Made by a program: the position numbers and the translations under genes | Shown here: piece by piece, positions 1,698 through 12,265 of the stretch | Numbering within the stretch: the stretch's first letter is position 1 | How the letters are laid out: every line of letters begins with the position of its first letter | Notes under the pieces: generated by a model | Told to the model about the DNA's origin: nothing | What the model saw: only the letters and a program-made list of their open reading frames with translations | The model's database searches: none | Source of the DNA: an archaeon | GTDB taxonomy: Archaea > EX4484-52 > B79-G9 | Reading direction: 5' to 3' | Assembly: GCA_013139905.1 (NCBI GenBank) | Contig: WSZW01000008.1 | Location: 1-33,438, forward strand | DNA: 33,438 nucleotides

Positions 1698-1699
1698 AT

Positions 1700-2392: not shown

Positions 2393-2393
2393 C

Positions 2394-2543
2394 ATGGTAA
2401 AAAGAAAAAAAACAAATAAAGCACCAAGACTAAGAATAGATTTGACTATCTATTTTCATGGCAAGTCAATTCTAAAATATAGAAAAATTACACTTAATAG
2501 AGCAAAGAAGATGTTGAAGGATATCAATAAAAAATTCAATTAA
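2394..2543 (+). CDS. Small basic protein (49 aa)
   Basis: ORF read by eye (MVKRKKTNKAPRLRIDL...). It lies below the track cutoff and has a weak RBS. Confidence 0.35.
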   Translation: MVKRKKTNKAPRLRIDLTIYFHGKSILKYRKITLNRAKKMLKDINKKFN

Positions 2544-2764
2544 AGAATCGTTTATATCTATCCACAACCATCTATCTATCTGCTGCCTTGTGCAAGTGTC
2601 AACCTCTAAAGTTGCACTTTTAAGTTGATTATTGGTAGTAGATCACCGGGGGTTTGTAAGTCCAATGAGCATAACCCAGACAATTTTTATATATTTTTAA
2701 TTCAATAAAGTATTTGTCCATATATTTTCATTTAGTTATAGGTTTTAAACTCTGTGGATGAAAT

Positions 2765-2780
2765 GTAAAGGCATATATAG
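2765..2780 (+). promoter_or_regulatory. BRE/TATA-like promoter for recombinase gene (leaderless geometry)
   Basis: GTAAAG-GCATATATAG is centred about 28 nt upstream of ATG 2804. There is no SD. Confidence 0.45.
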
Positions 2781-2803
2781 TATTTACACATACTCTGTGT
2801 CTT

Positions 2804-3409
2804 ATGGAATACTCACATAAATTGGAACTTTTTGCGTATTGTCGTGAATCTGTTGATCTGAAAACAGGAATAGAAATTCAAAAGGAATCTATTCAAAGAT
2901 ATTGTGATGCATATGAGATCACAATTCAAAAATGGTTCATTGATAATGATGCAAGTGCTTACAAGTATAGACCGAACTTTGAAAAAATGTGGAACTCACT
3001 TGATGGATGTGATGGGGTAATTGTAAAAGACCTTTCACGTTTTGGTAGGAGTGATGCAGATATGTTGGCTAAGTTCAATGAAATGAAAGATAGTGGTAAA
3101 CGGCTGATCCTTATCAAAGAAAACATTGATTCATCCACTCCGGAGACTGAATTTTTCTTAAAGATACTGGCATTGTTTGCGGACCGGGAAGCAACTACCA
3201 TAAGAGAGCGGTTGACTGCTGGAAGGGCATATGCAAAGATTCATGGGACAAAGTCAGGTAAACCCATGCACAGACCAGCAAAGAAAATCAACTGGGAGAA
3301 GTTCGATGAAATGAGGGGGAAAGGAATTTCAGTAATTAATATTGCCAAGATGATGGGGATAAGCCAAAGTAAATTATATCATGATATCAAGATAAGACCA
3401 AAGCAATAA
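2804..3409 (+). CDS. Small serine recombinase (resolvase/invertase family) with C-terminal HTH
   Basis: It aligns by eye along the whole length to gamma-delta resolvase. Matches include LFAYCRES (catalytic Ser), VIVKDLSRFGRSDADM, ILALFADREATTIRERLTAGRAYAK and the HTH ISVINIAKMMGISQSKLYHDI. Confidence 0.9.
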   Translation: MEYSHKLELFAYCRESVDLKTGIEIQKESIQRYCDAYEITIQKWFIDNDASAYKYRPNFEKMWNSLDGCDGVIVKDLSRFGRSDADMLAKFNEMKDSGKRLILIKENIDSSTPETEFFLKILALFADREATTIRERLTAGRAYAKIHGTKSGKPMHRPAKKINWEKFDEMRGKGISVINIAKMMGISQSKLYHDIKIRPKQ

Positions 3410-3451
3410 TTCAGAGGTGAATTAAAAGATACATGAAAATGAGGTGGAGAA

Positions 3452-3568
3452 ATGACGGCATATATATGTTACTGTGAAGAATGCCACAAGAAATTTATAA
3501 GTGGATTCTTAAACAATACAATGTGTTTGCCGTGTAGGCTTAAACAGAAGGATGAAAGAAATGAATGA
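3452..3568 (+). CDS. 38-aa zinc-ribbon mini-protein
   Basis: GAGGTGGAGA SD lies upstream. CYCEEC...CLPC cysteine pairs are present. The ORF ends 3 nt before R1. Confidence 0.5.
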   Translation: MTAYICYCEECHKKFISGFLNNTMCLPCRLKQKDERNE

Positions 3569-3571
3569 AAT

Positions 3572-3669
3572 TAGCTCAAGTCACCAGTGGCACTCAGACT
3601 CGCTCTATAGAGCGGCCTGGTGCTACTAAAACACCCGCATGAATGCGGGAGCATGGCTGAGATGATGCA
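3572..3669 (+). repeat. Structured cassette-boundary repeat R1 (5' arm A, partial; core alpha; 3' arm A)
   Basis: TAGCTCAAGTCAC arm. AGTGGCAC-CAG..CTG-GTGC-ACT stem enclosing CGCTC-TATA-GAGCG. CCCGCA-TGAA-TGCGGG hairpin. GCATGGCTGAGATGATGCA arm. Confidence 0.85.
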
Positions 3670-3713
3670 AAAATATAAGTATGACTAAATTAAATTGTGT
3701 AGTGTGATTAATC

Positions 3714-3914
3714 ATGACCAGAAAATACACAACAAAAAAAGACCGTGTGAGAAATATAAACGGAATTGTTTTTAAAGAGTCGCAGGGCAACCTCACAAAG
3801 AAAAAAGCAAGACAAATTGCAGCAACGTGGAATATGAAGGGACGAAAAGCAAGAGTGCTTCCTAGTAAATGGCCCATACAGCACACTTGGTCGGTGTTTA
3901 TAGAAAAGAAGTAA
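3714..3914 (+). CDS. Small basic protein (66 aa)
   Basis: GTGTGAT SD-like motif lies before the ATG. An A/T-rich TATA-like tract follows directly after R1. A T8 run follows the ORF. Confidence 0.6.
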   Translation: MTRKYTTKKDRVRNINGIVFKESQGNLTKKKARQIAATWNMKGRKARVLPSKWPIQHTWSVFIEKK

Positions 3915-3920
3915 TACAAT

Positions 3921-3938
3921 ATTTATTTTATTTTTTTT
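3921..3938 (+). terminator. Oligo-T tract (archaeal terminator-like)
   Basis: ATTTATTTTATTTTTTTT lies immediately after the stop of 3714..3914. Confidence 0.45.
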
Positions 3939-3942
3939 AGTG

Positions 3943-4033
3943 TTGCATTGGTGTTAGCTCAAGTCACGGGCGCCAGCGGCGGACCGCCCAACCCCTGCTT
4001 AGAAAGCAGGGGCATGACTAAGATTGACCCCTG
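3943..4033 (+). repeat. Repeat R2 (5' arm A; GC-rich core delta; 3' arm B)
   Basis: TTGCATTGGTGTTAGCTCAAGTCAC arm. GGGCG..CGCCC stem. CCCCTGCT-TAGAA-AGCAGGGG hairpin. Ends CATGACTAAGATTGACCCCTG. Confidence 0.85.
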
Positions 4034-4110
4034 CTTTTAATATTCTCTTTTTTATAATGGTTGTGTTGTAAACCGACAAGTTTAAGTAAGTTTAAGGCGT
4101 ATTATTAACT

Positions 4111-4245
4111 ATGAAGTGTAAGGCTTTGAAATCAAGTAATGAAGGACGGAGAGTTGAATGCCAAGCAGTTGATACAAACAAATGTAAAAAAACAAGAGGA
4201 CAATTTAATGTAACACAATATTGTTGGTGTATCAAGGAGGAATGA
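4111..4245 (+). CDS. 44-aa Cys-rich mini-protein
   Basis: ORF read by eye (MKCKALKSS...YCWCIKEE). Its stop overlaps the AGGAGG SD of the next gene. Confidence 0.4.
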   Translation: MKCKALKSSNEGRRVECQAVDTNKCKKTRGQFNVTQYCWCIKEE

Positions 4246-4248
4246 ATA

Positions 4249-4422
4249 ATGAAATGTAAAAAAATAGATTGTGATGAATGTGGTATAAACATCACTGATA
4301 GAGTCTACTATGCACAAGGATATACTTATAATTGTTGTTCTCATGGGTGTCTGGCACGGATAATGTTGAATGTTCAGGTATCGACAATTCAAGCAAGATT
4401 TGATTATTTGAATGAGGATTAA
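4249..4422 (+). CDS. 57-aa zinc-binding mini-protein (TRASH/MYM-like Cys spacing)
   Basis: AGGAGG SD lies upstream. CDEC-x19-CC-x3-C pattern (CDECGINITDRVYYAQGYTYNCCSHGC). Confidence 0.5.
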   Translation: MKCKKIDCDECGINITDRVYYAQGYTYNCCSHGCLARIMLNVQVSTIQARFDYLNED

Positions 4423-4425
4423 ACT

Positions 4426-4617
4426 ATGAAAAACTGGATTGATAACTTAGGGTTTGTACTGGTTTTTGTCGTGTATGCAATCGGTGCAGCATATACTGGT
4501 GTTATTTCTTATGGGATTGTGAGATTGGTATTTGGGGGGATGGGTATTTTATCTTTGATTTTTGCCATTCTTTTAATGAAAGATATGTTACTAAAAACCG
4601 AGGGGTCGGTATCTTAG
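4426..4617 (+). CDS. Small two-helix membrane protein (63 aa)
   Basis: GAGGATTAAACT lies before the ATG. Two hydrophobic helices are present. The C-terminal codons (EGSVS*) lie inside the R3 5' arm. Confidence 0.6.
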   Translation: MKNWIDNLGFVLVFVVYAIGAAYTGVISYGIVRLVFGGMGILSLIFAILLMKDMLLKTEGSVS

Positions 4618-4718
4618 AGTAGATGATGAGTCACTTGCACGTCCCTGACTCGTCCATAGGACGGCCAGGGCGAGCAAAAACACCCGGATGAATCCGGGAG
4701 CATGGCTAAGATGATGCA
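4600..4718 (+). repeat. Repeat R3 (5' arm B; core beta; 3' arm A)
   Basis: GAGGGGTCGGTATCTTAGAGTAGATGATGAGTCAC arm. TTGC-CG-CCCTG..CAGGG-CG-GCAA stem enclosing CGTCC-ATA-GGACG. CCCGGA-TGAA-TCCGGG hairpin. GCATGGCTAAGATGATGCA arm. Confidence 0.9.
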
Positions 4719-4860
4719 AAAAGTATTTAATACAATAAACACTGTTTTTATATGAGTGATTTTTTATGTCTAAAATTGTTCATGTAAAAGCACATACAAG
4801 AAAAGATCCAAAAACCGCAATTGCCTGGATAGTCGGATACGATATGAAGAAGGAATAATA

Positions 4861-5343
4861 ATGGATAAGAAAATAGCATTATTGGCAGTGTTTCTGCTTA
4901 TTGGCGTCGCATCAGCGGCGATATTGACAGAATATTTCAGAGATGAGCGAACCGTAGAAGTAACACCGTGGATGTCATTCGATGTAAATAATGACCCACG
5001 AGATACCACATATGGGCTCACTCAACTATATGATTATATCAATATCACTAGTCATAAGAAGTATTCTACGACATGTGAGATTGATACCGAGATATGGTTC
5101 AATGGGGAAGAACTAATCGATACAGAAGGCATCAAAGTCGATTATAGTGTAGAATCTGGAAGCGGTGCACTAATCACTCCATCTGATAATAATAACAATG
5201 GTCTTCCTGAAGCTGCAGTGTTTGGCACCCAGGACGCAGATGGAATATATACCATCAGACGGAATATCAACATCAATGAGGATCTGATTCCAGGAACATA
5301 CCGGATAGTCACTATATTAGTGCCGTATCAGGGAAATTCTTGA
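4861..5343 (+). CDS. Secreted/membrane-anchored protein (160 aa) with N-terminal signal-anchor
   Basis: GAAGGAATAATA lies before the ATG. N-terminus MDKKIALLAVFLLIGVASAAIL. No recognisable family. Confidence 0.7.
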   Translation: MDKKIALLAVFLLIGVASAAILTEYFRDERTVEVTPWMSFDVNNDPRDTTYGLTQLYDYINITSHKKYSTTCEIDTEIWFNGEELIDTEGIKVDYSVESGSGALITPSDNNNNGLPEAAVFGTQDADGIYTIRRNININEDLIPGTYRIVTILVPYQGNS

Positions 5344-5382
5344 GTAGGAAACATAATTATTCGCTATGGCTAAATTGTTACA

Positions 5383-5490
5383 AAGTGCTAGCTCTCAGGT
5401 CACTTGCACAAACCTCACACGTTCTGCGGAACGGCGATGTTGAGCAAAAACACCCATCTAAAGATGGGATGCATGACTAAAATGGTGGAT
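5383..5490 (+). repeat. Repeat R4 (5' arm A, degenerate; core gamma; 3' arm A, degenerate)
   Basis: AAGTGCTAGCTCTCAGGTCAC arm. TTGC..AACCTC..GTTC-TGCG-GAAC..GATGTT..GCAA stem. CCCATC-TAAA-GATGGG hairpin. GCATGACTAAAATGGTGGAT arm. Confidence 0.8.
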
Positions 5491-5649
5491 GAAATGATTA
5501 ATATAAAAGATGAAATGAAACATGTAAAAATTGAAGAAGGACAGATATGGCGTAAACAAGGACCATATGACTGGTTAAAGATTGAAAGAGTTGTTGATCC
5601 TAACTATCCTAGATATGTTGGTGGTGTGTTTTGCAACCATATTATGTAG
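5482..5649 (+). CDS. Small protein (about 55 aa); start uncertain (5473/5482/5494)
   Basis: The track ORF 5404..5649 begins inside R4. The in-frame ATGs at the R4 3' arm are more plausible starts. Confidence 0.5.
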   Translation: MVDEMINIKDEMKHVKIEEGQIWRKQGPYDWLKIERVVDPNYPRYVGGVFCNHIM

Positions 5650-5765
5650 ATATACTAGATGAAATATGTAGTTTCTGTGGTGGGCCGTTGATGACAACCA
5701 CGTTGAATGAAGACACATCCGAATGTATTAATTGTAAAGCCAAATTTGAAATAGAAGATTGCTAA
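5631..5765 (+). CDS. 44-aa zinc-ribbon mini-protein, TTG start
   Basis: CSFC...CINC pairs are present. The frame opens at 5613. TTG 5631 follows a GGTGGTG SD-like motif. It overlaps the preceding ORF by 19 nt. Confidence 0.4.
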   Translation: MQPYYVDILDEICSFCGGPLMTTTLNEDTSECINCKAKFEIEDC

Positions 5766-5767
5766 CG

Positions 5768-5888
5768 TTGCATGGGTGTTGGCTCAAGTCACGGGCGCCG
5801 GTCCGAATGCGAGAATCCCGCATGACAAGCGCCCAACTCCCCACAGCGCTTCGCTAACGTGGGGAGCATGACGACGGAGATGATGCAT
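5768..5888 (+). repeat. Repeat R5 (5' arm A variant; core epsilon; 3' arm A)
   Basis: TTGCATGGGTGTTGGCTCAAGTCAC arm. GGGCGC..GCGCCC stem enclosing ATGCG-AGAATCC-CGCAT. CTCCCCAC..GTGGGGAG hairpin. CATGACGACGGAGATGATGCAT arm. Confidence 0.85.
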
Positions 5889-6074
5889 ATGGCAAGAACA
5901 CAAAGAAGTAAAAAACGTCGGCAGCAAATAAGAGAATTTAGAAAGGAAAATAATATTACGAACTGCAAGCGCTGTGGTGAACCACTTGGAATGACTTCAC
6001 ATAATTTTCTATGTTCAAAGTGTTGGAATATTCAAGAAAACTTCCCTAAATTCGATAGGCCAAAAACAATATAA
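5889..6074 (+). CDS. Basic zinc-ribbon protein (about 61 aa); alternative in-frame ATGs at 5880/5883 inside R5
   Basis: MARTQRSKKRRQQ..., then CKRCGEPLGMTSHNFLCSKC. The track start 5859 lies inside the repeat. Confidence 0.6.
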   Translation: MARTQRSKKRRQQIREFRKENNITNCKRCGEPLGMTSHNFLCSKCWNIQENFPKFDRPKTI

Positions 6075-6082
6075 AAAGCGAG

Positions 6083-6379
6083 GTGAAAATATTGGATGAA
6101 ATATTGTTAATATCTGCATATAATGAAATTATAAAAAAGCAACCACTTTCACGAATGGGTTATGTTGATATGCATAACTTGTATTCAGAAATTAGAAATA
6201 AAAAAGGAATAACATTACAACTATTTAAAGAATGGATGGTTGAATTTTTCAATAAATATAATTTAAATGGATTTGAATTTGCAAGAGCAACGATAGCAAG
6301 AACAGAAGTTAAACGATATTCGTTTATTATTGACAATAATGTATATTATTATATGGTAAAAAGGATGCATAGGTGCTAG
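6083..6379 (+). CDS. Hypothetical protein (about 95-98 aa); TTG 6092 is the likelier start
   Basis: GTG 6083 is part of the GAGGTGA SD. The ORF terminates on the second TAG of the R6 5' arm (..MHRC*). Confidence 0.6.
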   Translation: MKILDEILLISAYNEIIKKQPLSRMGYVDMHNLYSEIRNKKGITLQLFKEWMVEFFNKYNLNGFEFARATIARTEVKRYSFIIDNNVYYYMVKRMHRC

Positions 6380-6474
6380 CTCAAGTCACTTGCACAGCGC
6401 TGACACGATCAGAGGTCGGCCAGCCTGAGCAAAAACTCCCGGATGAATCCGAGAGCATGGATAAGATGATGCAT
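6364..6474 (+). repeat. Repeat R6 (5' arm A; beta-like unique core; 3' arm A)
   Basis: GATGCATAGGTGCTAGCTCAAGTCAC arm. TTGC-CAG-GCTG..CAGC-CTG-GCAA stem with inner CGATC-AGA-GGTCG (U.G wobble). CTCCCGGA-TGAA-TCCGAGAG hairpin. GCATGGATAAGATGATGCAT arm. Confidence 0.9.
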
Positions 6475-6476
6475 AA

Positions 6477-6710
6477 ATGACACGAACAAGAAGAATATAC
6501 AATAATCCAAACTTAAAGAAAACCCCCCGGTCACATATAGACGAGGGTGAATATATTCCAAGAGGCATACCATTTACACGAAGAAGCTGGATATGTATGG
6601 GGATGTGTCGCGGATGTAGAGACCCAGAAAAGGATCCGCGAGCAATTCGTAATAAAATGAAATCGCAATTTAAATTTCAATTGATGTATGAAAAGGAAAT
6701 GATAGTATGA
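6477..6710 (+). CDS. Small basic protein (77 aa)
   Basis: The ATG is 3 nt after the end of R6, with no SD. The protein is Arg/Lys-rich and contains CMGMCRGC. Confidence 0.6.
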   Translation: MTRTRRIYNNPNLKKTPRSHIDEGEYIPRGIPFTRRSWICMGMCRGCRDPEKDPRAIRNKMKSQFKFQLMYEKEMIV

Positions 6711-6814
6711 ATAATTATGAATTGGCTGTGGCGGTAGATGTTGTACTGCTCATTATAGGTTTGGTGTTATTATACAAATCTATGAAAGATAGACAAAGTG
6801 GGCAAGCGGAGTGA
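6707..6814 (+). CDS. 35-aa single-TM mini-protein
   Basis: ATGA start/stop overlap with the upstream ORF. Hydrophobic core AVAVDVVLLIIGLVLLY. Confidence 0.4.
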   Translation: MNNYELAVAVDVVLLIIGLVLLYKSMKDRQSGQAE

Positions 6815-6821
6815 AAGTTAT

Positions 6822-7013
6822 ATGAAAGAATATATATTGAAACTTGAAAATTCATTGGGTAATGGTATAGTTGCCACGTTTGTAAAAGTAAAAGACTTGA
6901 TAAAACACACGGAAGACAATCCACCACAACGAAAATACCATTATTATATGGTAGTCAAAGAAACCACTGAGACAAGAGTTGATATGAAAGCGATAAAACA
7001 ATTTTATTCGTGA
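6822..7013 (+). CDS. Small protein (63 aa)
   Basis: GGAGTGA SD lies before ATG 6822; the track GTG 6798 is less likely. The stop TGA is the first triplet of the R7 5' arm. Confidence 0.55.
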   Translation: MKEYILKLENSLGNGIVATFVKVKDLIKHTEDNPPQRKYHYYMVVKETTETRVDMKAIKQFYS

Positions 7014-7126
7014 TGCATAGGTGCTAGCTTAAGTCACTTGCGCAAACCTTACTCATTCTGCGGAATGGCAAGGTTGAGCAAAAACTCACGGGCTCAAAGC
7101 CCGAAGCATGAACGGAGATGATGCAT
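7012..7126 (+). repeat. Repeat R7 (5' arm A; core gamma; 3' arm A)
   Basis: GATGCATAGGTGCTAGCTTAAGTCAC arm. TTGC..AACCTT..ATTC-TGCG-GAAT..AAGGTT..GCAA stem. CGGGCT-CAA-AGCCCG hairpin. GCATGAACGGAGATGATGCAT arm. Confidence 0.9.
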
Positions 7127-7128
7127 GA

Positions 7129-7332
7129 ATGAACAATGAAAAATACCACTGTGAAGATTGTGAACAATTTATAAACAAAGGGAAGATGCACGATGAAAAT
7201 GAATCAGAGTTTATGAAAGAAATACATCGTGAATGGGGTGAGTGTAGAGACAGAGCAGAAGTTCATGCCAAAGCACCCATATGTGAAACGTTTGTAAAAC
7301 GAAAGTCATTAAAGGGTTTGTTCTTTAGATAA
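7129..7332 (+). CDS. Small Cys-containing protein (67 aa)
   Basis: The ATG is 3 nt after R7. HCEDCEQF...ECRD...PIC. Confidence 0.6.
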   Translation: MNNEKYHCEDCEQFINKGKMHDENESEFMKEIHREWGECRDRAEVHAKAPICETFVKRKSLKGLFFR

Positions 7333-7341
7333 TGATGACAC

Positions 7342-7456
7342 GATGCATAGGTGCTAGCTCTCAGTCACTTGCAGCAACCTGACACGCTCTACGGAGCGGC
7401 CAGGTGCAGCAAAAACACCCATCTGAAGATGGGATGCATGAACGGAATGAACCCCT
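7342..7456 (+). repeat. Repeat R8 (5' arm A; beta-like unique core; 3' arm B-like)
   Basis: GATGCATAGGTGCTAGCTCTCAGTCAC arm. TTGC-GCA-CCTG..CAGG-TGC-GCAA stem enclosing CGCTC-TACG-GAGCG. CCCATC-TGAA-GATGGG hairpin. GCATGAACGGAATGAACCCCT arm. Confidence 0.85.
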
Positions 7457-7483
7457 TAAATAATAAATTGATAAGGTGATGAA

Positions 7484-8236
7484 ATGATTGATAATATGAC
7501 CCCAACGAAAGAACAGAAGAAAGAATTTATAGTAAAGGCACTTGGAATTGCAGGATTCACAGAAAAGGAAAACTACCAATGGCTGTATACCCAAGAACAC
7601 GGTATGAAAACTGTTGTAGTGAACTTAAACGAATGGCCCGTTAAGCCATATTTCAACGTTAGTGGTAAGAAGATTACAGAGGACGATGAACATGCAACGT
7701 TGAAGAAGGTAAGAACCATCATTAATGAGGCGGAGGGTGGCCAGATGCCTTCGAGGACAGAGGCTGACATTGTTGTGAACGTTGGTACGAAAGATACATC
7801 TGCTGATGATATAGATGCACCAGAGCATAAGAAGTATGCACAGGTCGAGACACCAGACCAGCCAGACGATGCGCCTACACAAACACATAAAACAATGACT
7901 CATGAAGAAGCAATGGCATTACCAAAACAACAGTTTATAGATAGATGCAAAGCATGGTTGGATGAATTCAATGACGGCAACCAACTAAACATAGATGGTC
8001 CCACAAAATGTCCTATTCATGCCTGGGTAATGCATAACCACCAAGCATGTTGCAAAGATTTAGTTGGTGGTATAACAAATTGTGAGATCTGCGGCCAGCC
8101 GATGTGCCCAGATTGTTCAAACCACGGAGTAACTCAACTCTCGAGAGTAACCGGGTACATTCAAGATGTCGCTGGATTTAATGCAGGAAAAAAGCAAGAG
8201 TTGGCCGACCGCAAAAAACACGATACATTTAGGTAA
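7484..8236 (+). CDS. 250-aa protein with C-terminal NrdD-type zinc-ribbon plus glycyl-radical domain; N-terminal 170 aa unknown
   Basis: GGTGA SD lies upstream. The C-terminus CEICGQPMCPDCSNHGVTQLSRVTGYIQDVAGFNAGKKQELADRKKH matches the E. coli NrdD tail RRVCGYLGSPDARPFNAGKQEEVKRRVKH. Confidence 0.75.
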   Translation: MIDNMTPTKEQKKEFIVKALGIAGFTEKENYQWLYTQEHGMKTVVVNLNEWPVKPYFNVSGKKITEDDEHATLKKVRTIINEAEGGQMPSRTEADIVVNVGTKDTSADDIDAPEHKKYAQVETPDQPDDAPTQTHKTMTHEEAMALPKQQFIDRCKAWLDEFNDGNQLNIDGPTKCPIHAWVMHNHQACCKDLVGGITNCEICGQPMCPDCSNHGVTQLSRVTGYIQDVAGFNAGKKQELADRKKHDTFR

Positions 8237-8250
8237 ATTTAGTTAATAAT

Positions 8251-8270
8251 GATGACTGGGATTGACCCCT
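8251..8270 (+). repeat. Orphan 3' arm B relic (no core)
   Basis: GATGACTGGGATTGACCCCT matches CATGACTAAGATTGACCCCT of R2/R10. It lies 7 nt upstream of the truncated 5' arm of R9. Confidence 0.55.
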
Positions 8271-8277
8271 TTATATG

Positions 8278-8379
8278 AGCCGTAGATTAGTCACTAGTGG
8301 CACTCAGACTCGCTCAGTAGAGCGGCCTGGTGCTACTAAAACACCCGCATGAATGCGGGAGCATGGATAAGATGATGCA
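8278..8379 (+). repeat. Repeat R9 (5' arm B, truncated; core alpha; 3' arm A)
   Basis: GAGCCGTAGATTAGTCAC arm. The core is nearly identical to R1 and R14. GCATGGATAAGATGATGCA arm. Confidence 0.9.
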
Positions 8380-8424
8380 AAAATATTTATTTAATAAAAA
8401 CAAACAATAAAGATGTGATATATC

Positions 8425-8622
8425 ATGCCAAAAGGAAGAAACACAATGGATTTTATGGTTTCATTTAGACAACCTAACATGCCAGGTAAAAGCAAATATA
8501 GAATTCAAGCATATTCAAAATCTGATGCATTGAAACGGGCAAAAGCAAGATGGCCGTCATCTGGAGAATTTGAAGTATTGTATGGAGTGAAAACGGTTCG
8601 TGGAAAATCTGTCAAATTTTAA
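8425..8622 (+). CDS. Small basic protein (65 aa)
   Basis: A TATA-like AAATATTTATTTAAT tract follows R9. GATGTGAT SD-like motif lies before the ATG. Confidence 0.6.
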   Translation: MPKGRNTMDFMVSFRQPNMPGKSKYRIQAYSKSDALKRAKARWPSSGEFEVLYGVKTVRGKSVKF

Positions 8623-8639
8623 TTTTTGTTCGCCGATGG

Positions 8640-8750
8640 TTGCATAGGAGTTGGCTCAAGTCAGGGGCGCCGGTCCGAATGCGAGAATCCCGCATGACAA
8701 GCGCCCAACTCTCCCTTAGAAAGGGAGAGCATGACTAAGATTGACCCCTG
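8640..8750 (+). repeat. Repeat R10 (5' arm A variant; core epsilon; 3' arm B)
   Basis: TTGCATAGGAGTTGGCTCAAGTCA arm. The GGGCGC..GCGCCC stem is identical to R5. CTCTCCCT-TAGAA-AGGGAGAG hairpin. CATGACTAAGATTGACCCCTG arm. Confidence 0.9.
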
Positions 8751-8760
8751 TCTTTTTTTA
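8751..8760 (+). terminator. Oligo-T tract after R10
   Basis: TCTTTTTTTA lies directly after the 3' arm B. Confidence 0.35.
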
Positions 8761-8809
8761 AATAGAAATCCTTAAATAGAATAACTTACTTACTTAGTAT
8801 GGTGATATT

Positions 8810-9016
8810 GTGAAAATACAAATTCAAGTATTAAACCGCATCGATGAATTGACTTGTGAAATGGAAGATACAAAACATTCCATGGATAATGGTGGGACAA
8901 ACTTATTTTTTTACATGGAACATAAAAGAAAGTTGTTAGAGCAAGCAACCGAAATAAAACATCTATGTTGGGTAATAGATGAAGAAGTACCAAAACATAT
9001 TTTAGCCTTGTTATGA
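8810..9016 (+). CDS. Small protein (68 aa), GTG start
   Basis: GGTGA SD lies 4 nt upstream of GTG 8810. Confidence 0.55.
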   Translation: MKIQIQVLNRIDELTCEMEDTKHSMDNGGTNLFFYMEHKRKLLEQATEIKHLCWVIDEEVPKHILALL

Positions 9017-9020
9017 GGTT

Positions 9021-9221
9021 ATGAAAATGAAAAATCTTAATGAGAAATTTACTGATGGGGAATATGCAGAATTGATGAGATTGAAGAACTTTATTGGTTT
9101 GCCTTGGCATGATCTATTATTGCAGATATTCAGAGAAGGTGAAAAGACCGTTATAAAAATGTTGGTTGCGGAGGGACACACCAAAGAAGAGATTGAAGAA
9201 ATGTTTAATGAGAGGAATTGA
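9021..9221 (+). CDS. Small protein (66 aa)
   Basis: TGAGGTT lies before the ATG. It is closely packed with its neighbours. Confidence 0.55.
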   Translation: MKMKNLNEKFTDGEYAELMRLKNFIGLPWHDLLLQIFREGEKTVIKMLVAEGHTKEEIEEMFNERN

Positions 9222-9224
9222 AAG

Positions 9225-9380
9225 ATGACAGTTGTAGTGTGTGATAAAAAGGACTGTGCTCACTATGAGAATGGCATCTGTGAAATGGAACAGATATACT
9301 TTGAATTGATAAATGATGTACTTACGTGTGTAGATGATACTGAGTTTATTGAGGGGTCTGATCACAGAGCCGATGAATAG
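9225..9380 (+). CDS. 51-aa Cys-containing mini-protein
   Basis: GAGAGG lies before the ATG. VCDKKDCAHYENGIC. The last 9 codons (EGSDHRADE*) lie inside the R11 5' arm B. Confidence 0.5.
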   Translation: MTVVVCDKKDCAHYENGICEMEQIYFELINDVLTCVDDTEFIEGSDHRADE

Positions 9381-9469
9381 TCACTTGCGCGTCCCTGACT
9401 CGTCCACAGGACGGCCAGGGCGAGCAAAAACACCCGGATGAATCCGGGAGCATGGATAAGAAGACACAT
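9351..9469 (+). repeat. Repeat R11 (5' arm B; core beta; 3' arm A, degenerate)
   Basis: GAGGGGTCTGATCACAGAGCCGATGAATAGTCAC arm. The core is almost identical to R3 and R15. GCATGGATAAGAAGACACAT arm. Confidence 0.9.
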
Positions 9470-9489
9470 GAAAAGAGGCGAATAAATAA

Positions 9490-9678
9490 ATGAATGTAAG
9501 AATGTGGATATACACACATGTGGTGTGGGTATGGATGGTTTTGGCATGTGTTGTTGCTTATAATTTAGATAACATACCGATGATTTATGAATATTTTGAG
9601 GTTTTCGCAGGATTATATATTGCAGGATGTTTAATACTTTTCAGGGTTCAATCAAAAGACAACAATGTGGTGAAATAA
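9490..9678 (+). CDS. Small two-helix membrane protein (62 aa)
   Basis: AGAGGCGA lies before the ATG. Two hydrophobic helices are present. Confidence 0.55.
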   Translation: MNVRMWIYTHVVWVWMVLACVVAYNLDNIPMIYEYFEVFAGLYIAGCLILFRVQSKDNNVVK

Positions 9679-9852
9679 ATGGTAACTAAATTAGGTAAAT
9701 TTGAACTTAATACAAAGAAATGGAGAATAGAAAATGGATTAACAGGATCAGAGTGGAAAATATTTGTTGAGAATAGAGGCAATATTTTAGTAGTGGTTGT
9801 TGTTCTTGTTTCGATTGCATTTTTCATTCTTGGTTATACGTGTCCATTTTAG
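9679..9852 (+). CDS. 57-aa protein with C-terminal TM helix
   Basis: ORF read by eye (MVTKLGKFELNTKKW...ILVVVVVLVSIAFFILGY). The ATG is adjacent to the upstream stop. Confidence 0.45.
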   Translation: MVTKLGKFELNTKKWRIENGLTGSEWKIFVENRGNILVVVVVLVSIAFFILGYTCPF

Positions 9853-9874
9853 TGTGTGTGTAGATGATACTATG

Positions 9875-9943
9875 GATGCATAGGTGTTGGCTAGAAGTCA
9901 ACCGCACCCGGCTACAAGCAGGATGCATGCGGGAATGATGCAT
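9875..9943 (+). repeat. Repeat R12 (short form: 5' arm A; single composite hairpin; 3' arm A)
   Basis: GATGCATAGGTGTTGGCTAGAAGTCAA arm. CCGCA[CCGGCT-ACA-AGCAGG]ATGCATGCGG hairpin. GAATGATGCAT arm. Confidence 0.7.
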
Positions 9944-10210
9944 AAAAATGAGGTGAATAAATTGAAAAGTAAAGAAGAGATTGTTTTAACTGAAATAAAA
10001 GGGGCAAATGATATTGACAGTCCAATTTGGTTTACAAAAATAGTTGAAAATCTAGATGGTGTGTTGTCTAGAAGTGAAGTTGGAATAGCAATTGACAGAT
10101 TAAGTGATTTGGGTTATATAAAAGGAAGATATGGTGAAGTTAGAAAAGGATGGAGTGGATATAAATATCATATTACAGACATTGGTGAATCGTTATTTAA
10201 GATGCGCTAA
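9938..10210 (+). CDS. Winged-helix-like small DNA-binding protein; start uncertain (ATG 9935/9938 in R12, or TTG 9962 after GAGGTGA)
   Basis: The track ORF starts at 9884 inside R12. LSRSEVGIAIDRLSDLGYIKGRYGEV..YKYHITDIGESL resembles a wHTH wing. Confidence 0.5.
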   Translation: MHKNEVNKLKSKEEIVLTEIKGANDIDSPIWFTKIVENLDGVLSRSEVGIAIDRLSDLGYIKGRYGEVRKGWSGYKYHITDIGESLFKMR

Positions 10211-10211
10211 C

Positions 10212-10302
10212 GATGCATAGGTGCTAGCTATAAGTCAAGGGCGCCAGCGGCGGACCGCCCAACTCCCTGCTAGAAGCAGGGAGCATGACTAAGTTTGACC
10301 CA
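10212..10302 (+). repeat. Repeat R13 (5' arm A; core delta; 3' arm B)
   Basis: GATGCATAGGTGCTAGCTATAAGTCAA arm. The GGGCG..CGCCC stem is identical to R2. CTCCCTGC-TAGAA-GCAGGGAG hairpin. CATGACTAAGTTTGACCCA arm. Confidence 0.9.
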
Positions 10303-10331
10303 TTGAATGAATAAATAAAGAGAGTGAATAT

Positions 10332-10517
10332 ATGACAAGCCCAGAACAAATACTCGCTATCGGAATTGAACGATTGGCAATGATGCGCGAAATGGCGAAA
10401 ATTATCATAAATGCAGAAACCAAAGAAGATATCCTTTTTATTTTAAAAACAATGGAAGAACAACTGGATGAAGGAATTACTGAAATTGATGTGTTGTGCA
10501 AACAAATGGGAGAATAA
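10332..10517 (+). CDS. Small acidic helical protein (61 aa)
   Basis: GAGAGTGA SD lies before the ATG. Confidence 0.55.
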   Translation: MTSPEQILAIGIERLAMMREMAKIIINAETKEDILFILKTMEEQLDEGITEIDVLCKQMGE

Positions 10518-10522
10518 TAAAT

Positions 10523-10837
10523 ATGCAAGTCGGAACAAAGGAGATCCCGGACGAATTGTTTTATAGATATCTGCGATTAATCAAAGCGACTGAACGAAGC
10601 AGTGAACGATACAACTATGATTTTGATAAGGAACGAGAGGCCGTTCATGATGAAATTATACATCATGTCAATCTCTTACCACACATGAAAGAATATAGAG
10701 AATTTCAAAGCCATCTACAAGATTTGTGTGAAGATATGTTGCCATCAAGATTTCCGCCATCGCAGATACCTATAACAATAAATCCCCCAAATAGTGGTTT
10801 GATGTCTAATAGAGGGGTCGGATCACAGAGCCGATAG
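10523..10837 (+). CDS. Hypothetical protein (about 104 aa)
   Basis: ATG 10523 follows the upstream stop; the track start 10496 overlaps the previous ORF. The C-terminal codons (RGVGSQSR*) lie inside the R14 5' arm B. Confidence 0.55.
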   Translation: MQVGTKEIPDELFYRYLRLIKATERSSERYNYDFDKEREAVHDEIIHHVNLLPHMKEYREFQSHLQDLCEDMLPSRFPPSQIPITINPPNSGLMSNRGVGSQSR

Positions 10838-10931
10838 ATAGTCACTAGTGGCCATCAGACTCGCTCTATAGAGCGGCCTGGTGCTACTAAAACTCCCGCA
10901 TGAATGCGGGAGCATGACTAAAATGATGCAT
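10812..10931 (+). repeat. Repeat R14 (5' arm B; core alpha; 3' arm A)
   Basis: GAGGGGTCGGATCACAGAGCCGATAGATAGTCAC arm. Core as in R1 and R9. GCATGACTAAAATGATGCAT arm. Confidence 0.9.
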
Positions 10932-10984
10932 GAAAAGGAAGTGGGATATATGAAAGTAATTTATGTTGAAAGGTGAGATAGTAA

Positions 10985-11095
10985 ATGATTAAAAGTACAG
11001 ATCCATATAAAAATACTGGAGCAATACATACTGATCCAGAGAATGATAAGTATTTATATGAATTACAAAAAAATAAAAGTAAAAGAGGTGAATAA
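10985..11095 (+). CDS. 36-aa mini-protein
   Basis: AAGGTGAGA SD lies before the ATG. ORF read by eye (MIKSTDPYKNTG...). Confidence 0.4.
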   Translation: MIKSTDPYKNTGAIHTDPENDKYLYELQKNKSKRGE

Positions 11096-11099
11096 ATAA

Positions 11100-11282
11100 A
11101 TGGAAAACATAATCAAAAAGGTAAGAGTATTTGAGTCAAAATCAAATTACCACAACGGTGAAGATATCGGCTCTGGGTTTGCAGTGATTGTAGATCCACT
11201 ACTAACAACCGGACACCAGAAATGGCAAGTTGCACAGGCGATAAGGTATGCATTAGAGAATTTGGTATTAGAGGATGAATAA
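11100..11282 (+). CDS. Small protein (60 aa)
   Basis: AGAGGTGA SD lies before the ATG. Confidence 0.55.
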   Translation: MENIIKKVRVFESKSNYHNGEDIGSGFAVIVDPLLTTGHQKWQVAQAIRYALENLVLEDE

Positions 11283-11309
11283 TGACAAAGCAAAGGAGAT
11301 GAAAAGAAT

Positions 11310-11426
11310 ATGTTCTGTCGTCATGAATGGATAAAAGTAGGTGGTCCACAAAGAGCTGGACCCGGACAATTCAGTCAACATTTTAGATGTGTTAAATGTA
11401 ACAAAACAAAAAGACTGGTTGATTAA
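11310..11426 (+). CDS. 38-aa zinc-finger-like mini-protein
   Basis: AAGGAGATGA SD lies upstream. FCRHEW...RCVKCN. Confidence 0.45.
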   Translation: MFCRHEWIKVGGPQRAGPGQFSQHFRCVKCNKTKRLVD

Positions 11427-11428
11427 CA

Positions 11429-11539
11429 ATGCATAGGTGCTAGCACGAAGTCACTTGCGCGTCCCTGACTCGTCCACAGGACGGCCAGGGCGAGCAAAAA
11501 CTCCCGGCTGAAGCAGGGAGCATGGTTAAACTGATGCAT
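11429..11539 (+). repeat. Repeat R15 (5' arm A; core beta; hybrid P3; 3' arm A)
   Basis: ATGCATAGGTGCTAGCACGAAGTCAC arm. Beta stem identical to R11. CTCCCGGC-TGAA-GCAGGGAG hairpin. GCATGGTTAAACTGATGCAT arm. Confidence 0.9.
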
Positions 11540-11714
11540 AAAAGCAGTTGCACGAAACAAAGCACTGTTTGCAAATGCTATATGGTCCGTATCAAATCCT
11601 TTGTTGGTGGGATATAACTATTATAATGGAATGATTGAACAATCTATCATGTTCGCTGTTTTTACATTGGTGGCAGGGTATGGGGTATATAATTTAAAAA
11701 TTAAAGCGGAGTGA
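11535..11714 (+). pseudogene. N-terminally truncated paralogue of the 15084..15320 membrane protein, abutting R15
   Basis: The frame is open from 11535 with no ATG/GTG/TTG until mid-ORF. NAIWSVSNPLLVGYNYYNGMIEQSIMFAVFTLVAGYGVYNLKIK aligns to NVLWLISNPAMSVYNYNINEFEMAGMFGVYSMIAVYGVYNLKLK. Confidence 0.5.
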
Positions 11715-11719
11715 AAGCA

Positions 11720-11869
11720 ATGACAGATACTATGGACTTACTAACAATCAATACTTGTGATTTGAATGAATTAAAAGTTGATTTGGACGGAGATTTTTAT
11801 ATGTCCATATCAGATCGTGTAGGATTTGTGACCGACTTTATTGAACTGGTAGATAAATATAGAATATGA
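11720..11869 (+). CDS. 49-aa acidic mini-protein
   Basis: GGAGTGA SD lies upstream, the same context as at 6806. The stop TGA is the first triplet of R16. Confidence 0.45.
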   Translation: MTDTMDLLTINTCDLNELKVDLDGDFYMSISDRVGFVTDFIELVDKYRI

Positions 11870-11924
11870 TGCATAGGTGCTACAACGAAGTCAACTACCA
11901 TGCCTTAAAAGGCATGGCATCATC
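11868..11924 (+). repeat. Repeat R16 (terminal short form: 5' arm A then terminator-like hairpin)
   Basis: GATGCATAGGTGCTACAACGAAGTCAAC, then CCATGCC-TTAAAA-GGCATGG and GCATCATC, which is the inverted GATGATGC. Confidence 0.65.
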
Positions 11925-11938
11925 TAATTTCTTTTTTT
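11898..11938 (+). terminator. Hairpin plus T7 run closing the cassette array
   Basis: CCATGCC/GGCATGG stem (11898-11917) is followed by TTTCTTTTTTT. Confidence 0.5.
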
Positions 11939-11982
11939 CCGGTGGTTTTTGGTTGTGGTGTGGGGTGTGGTTTTTAAGTGGA

Positions 11983-11996
11983 AAGTTATATATAGT
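11983..11996 (+). promoter_or_regulatory. BRE/TATA-like promoter of the replication module
   Basis: GAAAG-TTATATATAG lies about 29 nt upstream of ATG 12020. Confidence 0.45.
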
Positions 11997-12019
11997 TTAA
12001 CATCTATTTAACTTATATT

Positions 12020-12163
12020 ATGTTATTGGAAACTAAAATCCATAAAATCGGCGGATCACATATGTTGGTGATACCAGGCCCAATGGTTGAATATTTTAAA
12101 ATCAAACCAGGAAAATGTAAAATCGAAGACACAGACGAAAACGAAGCACGGCTGGTTTTTTGA
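12020..12163 (+). CDS. AbrB/SpoVT-like (swapped-hairpin) small DNA-binding protein, 47 aa
   Basis: ORF read by eye: MLLETKIHKIGGSHMLVIPGPMVEYFKIKPGKCKIE.... The KIGGS..V.IP signature is typical of AbrB/MazE-fold regulators. Confidence 0.6.
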   Translation: MLLETKIHKIGGSHMLVIPGPMVEYFKIKPGKCKIEDTDENEARLVF

Positions 12164-12265
12164 GAGTGGTGAAGTTGATGTTTGTAAAAGGAACACCCCG
12201 CTGGCAGGCAGGGCATAAAAGAGATTCGATAGAACCAGTACTTAGATTGTTTTTATTTTATTTAA

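Follow-up and report, generated by a model that had tools for sequence, protein, structure and literature searches.

A possible integron-like array of gene cassettes separated by folded repeats in an archaeal, putatively virus- or plasmid-like element

In a stretch of archaeal DNA of 33,438 nucleotides (the window), small gene cassettes, about 15 in all, form an array in which folded repeats of 70-130 bases stand between neighbours. With a probability that we put at roughly 0.55, this is an integron-like cassette array that is marked by structure, undergoes exchange at the motif AGTCA and is carried by a virus- or plasmid-like element; the best explanation for its setting is the accessory region of an archaeal element of this kind. 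The array resembles an integron yet has neither the integron enzyme nor integron-type sites, and the relatives point to gain and loss exactly at AGTCA. The cassette cargo is of accessory type and includes three different DNA methyltransferases and a C-terminal domain of NrdD.

The repeats have a modular anatomy, their hairpins covary and hybrid copies occur in ordered pairs. All 16 repeats (R1 to R16, spanning 3556-11925 of the window) are intergenic and on the + strand, each located after a stop codon and before the next Shine-Dalgarno sequence or start codon, with the neighbouring genes co-oriented. Since they lie on the sense strand of these genes, the repeats are certainly present in RNA too. 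From 5' to 3', a repeat consists of a 5' arm, (A)GTCA, a core built from one hairpin or two (P2, P3), GCATG and a 3' arm, with GTCA and GCATG invariant around the covarying hairpins. As an earlier note on this DNA had stated, GTCA is found in 16 of 16 copies, as AGTCA in 15; R4 has GGTCA. The core types are few and discrete (alpha, beta, beta' and GC-rich). Seventeen base pairs were changed on both sides, and the covariation score was 0.404, compared with 0.139 in shuffles (0 of 500 reached 0.404) and at most 0.062 when pairing partners were slid; in addition, + strand G.U pairs are seen both in P1 and in stems. Only about six independent genomes carry the repeat family, which matched no Rfam family, even at E<=1, and nothing in the literature.

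Over the 16 repeats we could confirm two arm classes. A arms (ATGCAT class) read GATGCATAGGTGCTAGCT..AAGTCA on the 5' side and GCATGnnTAAGATGATGCAT on the 3' side, and B arms (GGGGTC/GACCCC class) read GAGGGGTCGGATCACAGAGCCGAT..AGTCA and GCATGACTAAGATTGACCCCTG; as claimed before, none of the 16 copies in the window is B/B. A/A copies are R5 (5767..5889), R6 (6364..6475, beta-like core), R7 (7012..7127, beta'-like core), the short R12 (9875..9943, single-hairpin core) and R15 (11428..11540, beta core), with R5 being A/A despite its GC-rich core, an exception already recorded. Three clean pairs are formed by R2 (3943..4034) and R3 (4600..4720), R10 (8639..8751) and R11 (9350..9470), and R13 (10213..10303) and R14 (10811..10931). 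In line with the earlier description, the leading members R2, R10 and R13 all join an A 5' arm and a GC-rich core to a B 3' arm (GTTTGACCCA in R13), and the trailing members R3, R11 and R14 join a B 5' arm to beta, beta and alpha cores, as found in R15 and R1, and to an A 3' arm (degenerate in R11). The pairs enclose three B-type cassettes on the + strand: 4035..4599, bounded by GACCCCTGCTTTT and AAAAACCGAGGGGTC, with small ORFs at 4111-4245, 4249-4422 and 4426-4617; 8752..9349, with ORFs at 8810-9016, 9021-9221 and 9225-9380 and, after the B 3' arm, a T-run and a TATA-like stretch; and 10304..10810, with ORFs at 10332-10517 and about 10523-10837.

Every clean B 3' arm is followed by a repeat that opens with a B 5' arm, and the chance of three such pairs among 15 intervals is 1/C(15,3), or 1/455. 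The corresponding duplexes are predicted at -17.5 (R2 x R3), -17.1 (R10 x R11) and -13.3 kcal/mol (R13 x R14), against an arm-duplex background of about -7 to -9 kcal/mol. Of the four pairs originally proposed, R8/R9 proved irregular, and its arms do not pair. R8 (7343..7457) has an A 5' arm, a beta' core and a B-like 3' arm (GAATGAACCCCTT), and R9 (8250..8380) shows on its 5' side a B-3'-arm-like remnant (GATGACTGGGATTGACCCC) and an inner B 5' arm (GAGCCGTAGATTAGTCA), followed by an alpha core and an A 3' arm; its 5' arm carries GATTGACCCC, in the sense of a B 3' arm rather than as the complement of one, and the duplex of -7.0 kcal/mol equals background. The irregular cassette in between (7458..8249, + strand) encodes a 250-aa protein with a C-terminus that matches the glycyl-radical end of NrdD (residues 197-246, Pfam NRDD 2.9e-11). 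R4 (5363..5492) is irregular as well: on its 5' side a remnant resembling a 3' arm is joined to the inner half of an A 5' arm, then GGTCA, and its 3' arm is AAAATGGTGGAT. Closure of A-type repeats by AUGCAU, as previously suggested, is weak (-7 to -9 kcal/mol, about background), and the pairing is not strict in relatives, where a B 5' arm is preceded by an A/A repeat (L001, L002) or the array ends in a partnerless B-3'-like arm (L023). A 63-kb relative (L158) has a B-like pair, AACCCAT:ATGGGTT, with two compensatory changes relative to GACCCC:GGGGTC.

Both ends of the array are atypical. R1 (3556..3672) has a non-A 'platform' 5' arm, an alpha core and an A 3' arm (ATGCAA variant), a layout that recurs in the first repeat of L016 and L031. 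R16 (11866..11925) consists of an A 5' arm, AGTCA and a unique hairpin closed by GATGATGC:GCATCATC, then a T-run, and R16-like layouts also stand at the array ends of L002 and L023. First repeats without an A 5' arm and last repeats with a unique 3' part are expected from serial insertion into one ancestral site.

Breakpoints among the relatives agree with the proposed exchange at the junction of 5' arm and core. L016 (518-4093) and L031 (81-3656) are 99.9% identical over 3577 bp, and the identity stops exactly after AAGTCA; L023 and L031, both from metagenome Ga0114919, are 100% identical over 96 nt to AAGTCA and then diverge. Beyond this motif, L016 and L023 continue with a beta core and an A 3' arm, whereas L031 continues with a GC core and a B 3' arm. 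The 5' arm at the L023/L031 junction is unique, so that misassembly at a repeat does not account for the junction; the two contigs represent a polymorphism of the occupied/empty type, and its left breakpoint falls where the junction was predicted. Owing to the contig ends, only this left breakpoint of the L031 event is visible, and neither a fully documented empty/occupied pair nor a B/B site or circle junction was found in the window or its relatives. Moreover, R1-R2 and R9-R10 share 95% identity that starts exactly at AGTCAC, and in four genomes the 5' arm in front of identical alpha and beta cores can be of the A, B or platform kind. The 5' arm travels with the upstream gene: in L031 as in L176, a related odd 5' arm (GGATGCG..AAGTCA) has stayed with a 181-aa gene. 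Gene order is variable, and this gene and a 193-aa gene have exchanged places between L031 and L177. However, R5 and R10 share the 5' arm and P2 across AGTCA (95% over 76 nt) and differ in P3 and the 3' arm, and L158b and L158c have a common core with different 3' arms, so AGTCA is not the sole mosaic junction.

We propose that the repeats may act as folded junction elements between mobile gene cassettes, and that the heritable unit would comprise core, 3' arm, ORF(s) and 5' arm, gained or lost through breakage and joining at AGTCA. Exchange at this motif would make every array repeat a hybrid, with the 5' arm contributed by the upstream cassette and the core and 3' arm by the downstream one. 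The ends of one cassette would be mutually complementary inverted repeats, ATGCAT/ATGCAT in most and GACCCC/GGGGTC in a second class, and a B-class cassette within an A-class array would give flanking repeats of the order A/B ... B/A. The intermediate would presumably be a circular or single-stranded cassette bearing a B/B site, probably recognised by its structure. If so, a longer L031-type contig should return to the L016 sequence via a B 5' arm, AGTCA and CTTGCACAAACCTGAC. The serine recombinase next to the array is an unlikely enzyme for such exchange; another candidate is a structure-specific enzyme that the host would supply, of either the HUH/Y1 or the tyrosine type. The window encodes no tyrosine, HUH or other structure-specific recombinase.

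The serine recombinase, a resolvase/invertase-type protein of 201 aa (2804..3409, + strand; Pfam Resolvase 4.4e-28; PHROG DNA invertase) with Gin invertase and gamma-delta/Tn3 resolvase as its best solved relatives, was put forward in the earlier note as the array enzyme, and an integrase that joins a circular B/B site to a resident A/A site at GTCA would make it so. No other recombinase was found in the window, its gene precedes R1 by 150 nt and shares the orientation of R1, and L031 also encodes a serine recombinase on its array contig. We nevertheless consider this quite improbable: the L031 gene is 4.6 kb away in the opposite orientation, in L014 the recombinase has a terminal-type 5' arm, inverted, directly at its 3' end, position and orientation relative to arrays vary among relatives, and homologues of 64-74% identity in array-less relatives (L005-L013, L015) indicate that the recombinase is not tied to arrays. 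Small serine recombinases act on dyad-symmetric duplex sites of about 28-34 bp, but no universal site of this kind was seen around AGTCA when the repeat sequences were read directly; the common junction is only (A/T)AGTCA(C/A), a partial palindrome (GCTCAAGTCACTTGCGC) is by inspection confined to beta-type repeats, and the array is not flanked by paired sites, either inverted or direct. Alternatively, the B cassettes could be non-autonomous, transposon-like cargo units with terminal inverted repeats TGACT..GACCCC / GGGGTC..AGTCA and 5'-TG...CA-3' ends, moved in trans by an enzyme such as a Y1 transposase of the IS200/IS605 type. Transposases of this type recognise hairpins, and they insert without target duplication on the 3' side of a fixed target of 4-5 nt, in keeping with covarying inverted-repeat ends and with insertion directly 3' of the invariant pentanucleotide AGTCA, beside hairpins and without duplication, and a related virus (L177-L179) carries an IS200-type Y1 transposase gene adjoining a GAGGGGTCGG motif. 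Still, we regard these units as highly unlikely to be transposons, since neither the window nor any array-bearing relative locus examined has a Y1/HUH gene, IS200/IS605 elements are not known to have terminal inverted repeats, the difference between L016 and L031 takes in the core as well as the stretch between the inverted repeats, and A-type cassettes share the architecture and would require the same explanation.

It is also possible, if somewhat doubtful, that the repeats function mainly as RNA, as folded intercistronic modules of a polycistronic transcript for processing, stability or insulation. The arms would then pair in RNA, with the B arms of A/B...B/A pairs joining across the cassette and looping it out, and DNA mosaicism would arise secondarily, when dispersed repeats recombine or templates are switched among them, as with PeSL. 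The sense-strand placement of 16/16 copies between co-oriented genes, the strong hairpin covariation and the + strand G.U pairs all favour this idea, as do cross-cassette B duplexes of -13 to -23 kcal/mol, including a compensatory variant, and mosaic junctions at several helix boundaries besides AGTCA; moreover, phages offer a precedent both for mini-circles and for ORF shuffling that is mediated by repeats (PMC2839356). Against it stand the lack of an Rfam match and a 26-nt A 5' arm that is kept in sequence, beyond structure alone, across divergent genomes. In addition, AAGTCA is all that the L023/L031 breakpoint shares with other repeats, too little for homologous exchange, and B cassettes appear by eye to have their own promoter-like T-run/TATA stretch past the B 3' arm, so their transcripts would miss one strand of the proposed helix. 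Finally, the outer stem of hybrid A/B and B/A repeats cannot form locally, yet these hybrids persist.

Among known systems, pdif/Xer modules of Acinetobacter plasmids and composite SCC islands likewise consist of accessory-gene modules bounded by recombination sites of alternating orientation or type, and the combination of a serine recombinase with a DUF927 (Cch) helicase in SCC elements is a further likeness, but their sites are short duplexes (28 bp dif-like, or attB/ISS) without folded repeats, and their enzymes are XerCD or large serine recombinases. IS200/IS605 elements and non-autonomous PATEs, which are common in archaea, share hairpin-marked ends, single-strand intermediates (presumed for our array) and an insertion that duplicates no target and takes place 3' of a fixed motif of 4-5 nt; they differ in depending on a Y1 transposase that is absent here, in their ends, as noted above, and in not building ordered arrays of cargo cassettes. 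PeSL, the mobile regulatory cassettes of T4-type phages for which mini-circles were demonstrated experimentally (PMC2839356, PMC4122927), are also dispersed intergenic stem-loop repeats in a viral hyperplastic region that flank small ORFans and mediate modular shuffling. However, PeSL combine promoter and terminator and recombine by homology, whereas the repeats described here have no promoter, a hairpin with a + strand T-run occurs in R16 only, internal repeats having no predicted + strand terminator, and invariant junction motifs are present, with one breakpoint sharing only 6 nt. Integrons with attC arrays have been reported in Archaea (PMC9668308) and phages (PMC9892861), and similar to these, our array is composed of co-oriented, mostly small accessory ORFs, its separators are imperfect inverted repeats of the 57-141-nt class with structure conserved more than sequence, exchange at a short invariant motif inside the repeat would make array repeats two-cassette hybrids, and the first and last sites are atypical. 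In contrast to integrons, it has no IntI-type tyrosine recombinase, no RYYYAAC/GTTRRRY core sites at the repeat ends and no fixed position of its only recombinase relative to the array. Moreover, the core is a conserved two-hairpin module of few discrete types, and the proposed crossover point is where the 5' arm ends on its inner side, at a three-way junction, such that integration would split the stem and give rise to two 'compatibility' classes of arms.

The AT-rich window (G+C about 36%) resembles an archaeal virus or plasmid and codes for a DUF927/Cch primase-helicase (12266-14137), a single small serine recombinase (2804-3409), adhesin-like giant proteins and a DnaA/STAND-like ATPase; its relatives are catalogued in IMG/VR as viral contigs, an NCBI primase 69% identical to its own bears the label "[archaeon]", and a search of deposited phages returned no close relative. 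All 16 intergenic repeats (R1-R16) lie on the plus strand and span 3556-11925, every copy lying after the stop codon of a small ORF and ahead of the next ORF's ribosome-binding site, and each follows the order 5' arm, (A)GTCA, core, GCATG, 3' arm. As the earlier note had described, the arms fall into two classes, A (5' GATGCATAGGTGCTAGCT..AAGTCA, 3' GCATGnnTAAGATGATGCAT) and B (5' GAGGGGTCGGATCACAGAGCCGAT..AGTCA, 3' GCATGACTAAGATTGACCCCTG), and none of the 16 window copies is B/B. R2, R10 and R13 join an A 5' arm to a B 3' arm (A/B) around a GC-rich core; the B/A copies are R3 and R11, each with a beta core, and R14, with an alpha core, and these two cores recur in R15 and R1. First repeats (R1 and L016a, the latter in a metagenome contig) lack an A 5' arm, and in the last repeats (R16 and those of the related contigs L002 and L023) the A 5' arm is fused to a unique hairpin and a T-run, a layout expected from serial insertion into one ancestral site. 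Directly 3' of the array, a G/T-rich stretch (GGTGGTTTTTGGTTGTGGTGTGGGGTGTGG ... TAGTTTAACATATATT; 11925-12010 in the window, 1900-2010 in the related contig L001) is kept in both elements and precedes a small conserved ORF and the primase; its role could be that of an origin or a regulatory region.

Pattern scans of sequence collections recovered the relatives. Two IMG/VR contigs (L001, L002), a 63-kb IMG/VR contig (L158) and the sediment-type metagenome contigs L016, L023, L024 and L031 carry the repeat family and, with the window, are its only carriers in the scanned collections. No GTDB representative genome has the repeats, about 120 loci from one loose scan pattern were discarded as chance matches, other strains of the window were found only as fragmented contigs from the same run (SRR10375098), and the searchable literature yielded no paper on such arrays or their motifs. 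In L176 and L177 the family is present in diverged form, with arms ATGCGCA/TGGCGCAT and AAGTGAC where the family has AAGTCAC. The L176 repeats (9505-9600, 9810-9905 and 10548-10577; 5' arm GGATGCGCAGGAACGAGTATCGAAGTGAC, 3' arm TGGCGCATG) share the plan with a different core and flank homologues of the window cassette gene 6477-6710 (68% amino acid identity) and of an L031 gene for 181 amino acids, so the phenomenon is broader than the A/B family. In addition, the metagenome contig L017 (Ga0255424_1607) contains CRISPR arrays (1580-3810) with the 37-nt repeat GTTTCAATCCTTGTTTTAGTGGAAGGTACTCTGCAAC, and one spacer (about 1693-1727; CTAACGATGCATAGGTGCTAGCTCTAAGTCACGGGCG) corresponds to the conserved A 5' arm together with the beginning of a GC-type core. 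The A 5' arm is thus a CRISPR target in an environmental array, which implies that a host targets these repeats and makes the L017 CRISPR repeat a lead to host identity. Clusters resembling tRNA 3' halves, in which acceptor-like ends come after T-arm-like GGTTCGAATCC/GGGTTCAAGTCCC, are found immediately upstream of the L031 array (3240-3720, minus strand) and after the L001 array (1080-1140 and 1720-1770); ARAGORN calls no tRNA there, and the clusters could be tRNA-like elements or what is left of attachment sites.

The fold of single copies is a three-way junction made up of P1 (AGUCA paired with UGRYU), a long hairpin P2 and a short hairpin P3; an outer AUGCAU stem is predicted in some copies. 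This fold is real: 17 base pairs vary on both sides among 17 alpha/beta-type copies from four genomes, and the covariation score of 0.404 compares with 0.139 in shuffles (0 of 500 reached 0.404) and at most 0.062 with the partners slid. One side of P1 and of the A-type outer stem never varies, so neither helix shows covariation. In 27 of 31 copies the minus-strand fold is more stable by 4 kcal/mol, with the variable stem positions balanced; this advantage is due to three invariant A.C juxtapositions, and wobble asymmetry, which reduces to the same three positions, was dropped as an indicator of the folded strand. Rfam 15, self-cleaving ribozymes included, gave no match at gathering score across the whole window and none even at E<=1 over 3400-12100. 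ARAGORN found no tRNA or tRNA-like element. By inspection the repeats have no hammerhead core and neither a canonical K-turn nor a C/D box arrangement, and the arms do not show bulge-helix-bulge geometry. On the minus strand of alpha/beta-type repeats the P3 hairpin is followed by TGTTTTTGCT, and these P3 sites (3634-3660, 4683-4710, 5453-5480, 6435-6466, 7089-7115, 7418-7445, 8344-8370 and 9433-9460) account for 8 of the 11 terminator-like sites predicted within 2500-12300; they could block antisense transcription into the array, or may be incidental.

The earlier note had described four strict A/B...B/A pairs, and three of them (R2/R3, R10/R11 and R13/R14) are borne out, with a B 3' arm in the first repeat of each and a B 5' arm in the second; the anatomy of the array and these three pairs are confirmed. 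By our own calculation the chance of three such B pairs among 15 intervals is 1/455, and duplexes between the two arms around a cassette have energies of -17.5, -17.1 and -13.3 kcal/mol, compared with about -7 to -9 for the background. The fourth pair falls away, as the R8 x R9 duplex is no better than background. The 5' side of R9 consists of GATTGACCCC, in the sense of a B 3' arm, and then the inner part only of a B 5' arm, and R4 has a like layout, with a remnant 3' arm fused to an inner 5' arm. Strictness holds for the three window pairs and breaks down outside the window, where L001 and L002 have an A/A repeat upstream of a B 5' arm and the L023 array ends in a B-3'-like arm without a partner. 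Several places resemble empty or collapsed units, namely L001:930-990 and window 5363-5400 and 8250-8292. In L001 a B 5' arm and GTCAA lead directly into ATGATGCAT, itself also the beginning of an A 5' arm, with no core and no ORF between them, and in R4 and R9 a 3'-arm-like remnant is joined to the inner half of a 5' arm. These seemingly collapsed units suggest deletions between the arms of a single cassette.

Breakpoints among the relatives, when mapped against AGTCA, bear on the further claim that such cassettes integrated at GTCA as B/B circles. L016 is 99.9% identical to L031 over 3577 bp and L023, from the same metagenome as L031 (Ga0114919), is 100% identical to it for 96 nt, and in both comparisons identity ends exactly after the AAGTCA of one repeat; past this point L016 and L023 have a beta core and an A 3' arm, whereas L031 has a GC-rich core and a B 3' arm before the contig ends. 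The 5' arm at this breakpoint is unusual (GGATGCGTATGTATGGAATTTGAAAGTCA), and the junction is therefore common to other repeats over 6 nt only, which excludes both an assembly join at a repeat and simple homologous exchange as the source of the L023/L031 junction. The left junction of L031 is the one predicted for a B-class unit inserted at AGTCA. Elsewhere too, similarity between R1-R2 and R9-R10 starts at AGTCAC, and near-identical alpha and beta cores stand behind A, B or platform 5' arms (the last being the non-A arm of R1) in the window, L002 and L158. In L176 the 181-aa gene of L031 is still followed by a related odd 5' arm, as it should be if 5' arms are part of the upstream cassette, and gene order differs between L031 and L177. 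The B-like pair of L158 has AACCCAT:ATGGGTT in place of GACCCC:GGGGTC, both changes being compensatory. AGTCA is a recurrent junction. It is not the sole mosaic point, since R5 and R10 share a 5' arm and P2 (95% over 76 nt) and differ from P3 onward, and L158b and L158c have the same core with 3' arms of class A and B, so that gene conversion or exchange takes place at other helix boundaries too. An independent population polymorphism and the recurrent junctions thus support the DNA-level reading, in which cassettes of a second arm class are integrated at AGTCA into an A-class array; no B/B site or circle junction was seen in the window or its relatives.

Which enzyme might act at these junctions is a separate matter, and the earlier candidate, the protein encoded at 2804..3409, is not upheld. 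It is a resolvase/invertase-type protein whose best solved relatives are Gin and the gamma-delta/Tn3 resolvase, and homologues of 64-74% identity occur in ten loci of related elements, none of which has the repeats, so the array and the recombinase are not linked through these homologues. Its position and orientation shift as well: the L031 homologue lies 4.6 kb from the array in opposite orientation. In the related locus L014 (8190-8230), an inverted terminal-type A 5' arm (reverse complement GTTGCATCGGTGCTACACGAAGTAAAC; compare R16) abuts the 3' end of a 74% identical recombinase, so that the array there seems to face the gene from the opposite side; the idea that the array is the invertible segment of a Gin-like invertase was rejected, as it has no flanking inverted sites. 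Small serine recombinases act on res, gix or hix sites, duplexes of about 28-34 bp with dyad symmetry around a 2-bp crossover that are the same in both partners. No such site was found at the junctions, nor a site pair flanking the array; all junctions have only (A/T)AGTCA(C/A) in common, too short for a normal resolvase/invertase site, and by inspection a partial palindrome is confined to beta-type copies. A Pfam scan of 66 window ORFs returned the serine recombinase as the only recombinase and no phage-integrase family match, and neither the window nor the array-bearing loci hold a tyrosine recombinase or HUH enzyme. The only IS200-type Y1 transposase found belongs to the diverged relative L177-L179, and its gene (134 amino acids; L177:6280-6880, also in L178 and L179) directly follows TTGAGGGGTCGGG, with which a B-type 5' arm begins, and a GAACCCC motif; this adjacency may be coincidence or a hint that B arms and IS200/IS605 ends are connected. 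Since covarying hairpins adjoin an invariant pentanucleotide, the enzyme may be structure-specific.

We give a probability of about 40% to the reading that the array belongs to an undescribed cassette-capture system of archaeal viruses or plasmids, in which folded three-way-junction sites would be cut and joined at the invariant AGTCA by an enzyme other than IntI (serine, HUH or host-encoded). With the proposed crossover inside a stem, integration would split each site and so give rise to compatibility classes of arms (A, B and the variants in L158 and L176). The predicted circle would join B 5' arm-AGTCA to GC core-B 3' arm, for cassette 1 (4035..4599) ...GAGGGGTCGGTATCTTAGAGTAGATGATGAGTCA to CGGGCGCCAGCGG..., and a predicted empty site would read, for example, ...GTTGCATTGGTGTTAGCTCAAGTCA joined to CTTGCACGTCCCTGAC.... 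Beyond its contig end, the L031 allele would comprise the cassette ORF(s), a B 5' arm and AGTCA followed by CTTGCACAAACCTGACACGATCGG, the L016/L023 sequence. Such a system would assemble anti-restriction and other accessory genes into viral arrays. Three relatives carry methyltransferase cassettes of three types, C5, N6_Mtase and MT-A70 (L031:737-1453 and L002:5972-6452, minus strand; L158:9885-10470, plus strand), which have the look of anti-restriction cargo; in L002 the gene begins with the ATG of a 3'-arm ATGCAT and ends at a TAG inside the next 5' arm. If the reading is right, archaeal viruses have a route for swapping methyltransferases and other counter-defence genes. Another cassette (window 7484-8236) encodes a 250-aa protein whose C-terminal 50 residues match the extreme C-terminus of NrdD, the anaerobic ribonucleotide reductase (Pfam NRDD, 2.9e-11), with an RVTGY-type glycyl-radical motif; the protein is possibly a spare-part glycyl-radical domain, and the L158 core region contains a homologue of its N-terminal part.

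A serious rival to cassette capture is that the repeats act at the RNA level and that shuffling is repeat-mediated, by analogy with the PeSL cassettes of T4-type phages (PMC2839356). As in PeSL, the repeats here bound insertions, deletions and replacements between close genomes (L016/L023 vs L031). PeSL, however, carries a strong promoter and a terminator stem-loop inside the repeat, whereas our repeats have no promoter-like AT-rich block and terminator-like matches on the minus strand only, in a scan for bacterial-type signals that is a weak test for an archaeal host. IS200/IS605 elements and PATEs insert 3' of a fixed tetra- or pentanucleotide without target duplication and have subterminal hairpins; the left junction after AAGTCA, the only side visible, fits this mode, whereas the B 5'-arm hairpins are weak and variable and the Y1 (HUH) transposase that these elements have in the element or genome is missing from the window and the array-bearing loci. 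A MITE-like origin would leave the whole repeat present or absent, with target duplication, in otherwise collinear genomes; the one close pair compared, L016/L023 vs L031, differs by a swap of core and 3' arm and not by a whole repeat.

Nothing like the array turned up in Rfam or the searchable literature, and to our knowledge integrons are the sole well-understood system that builds promoterless accessory-gene arrays via folded recombination sites. Integrons rely on one tyrosine-recombinase family, and an IntI-type enzyme adjoins the array; the window has none. Like attC, the repeats are imperfect inverted repeats of conserved structure and similar length (70-135 nt here, 57-141 nt for attC), but attC ends in R'' RYYYAAC and R' GTTRRRY with the crossover in R' (between G and TT), whereas the ends here are ATGCAT or GGGGTC/GACCCC, the breakpoint follows AGTCA, and by inspection a partial YTAAC precedes only 6-7 copies. 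The bottom-strand fold of attC has extrahelical bases; the minus-strand advantage here comes down to the A.C juxtapositions. The array works like an integron yet lacks an integron's defining features, having neither IntI nor RYYYAAC/GTTRRRY ends and a different crossover position. If cassette capture is the right reading, an IntI-less array with different sites and a different crossover position would mean that cassette capture evolved more than once.
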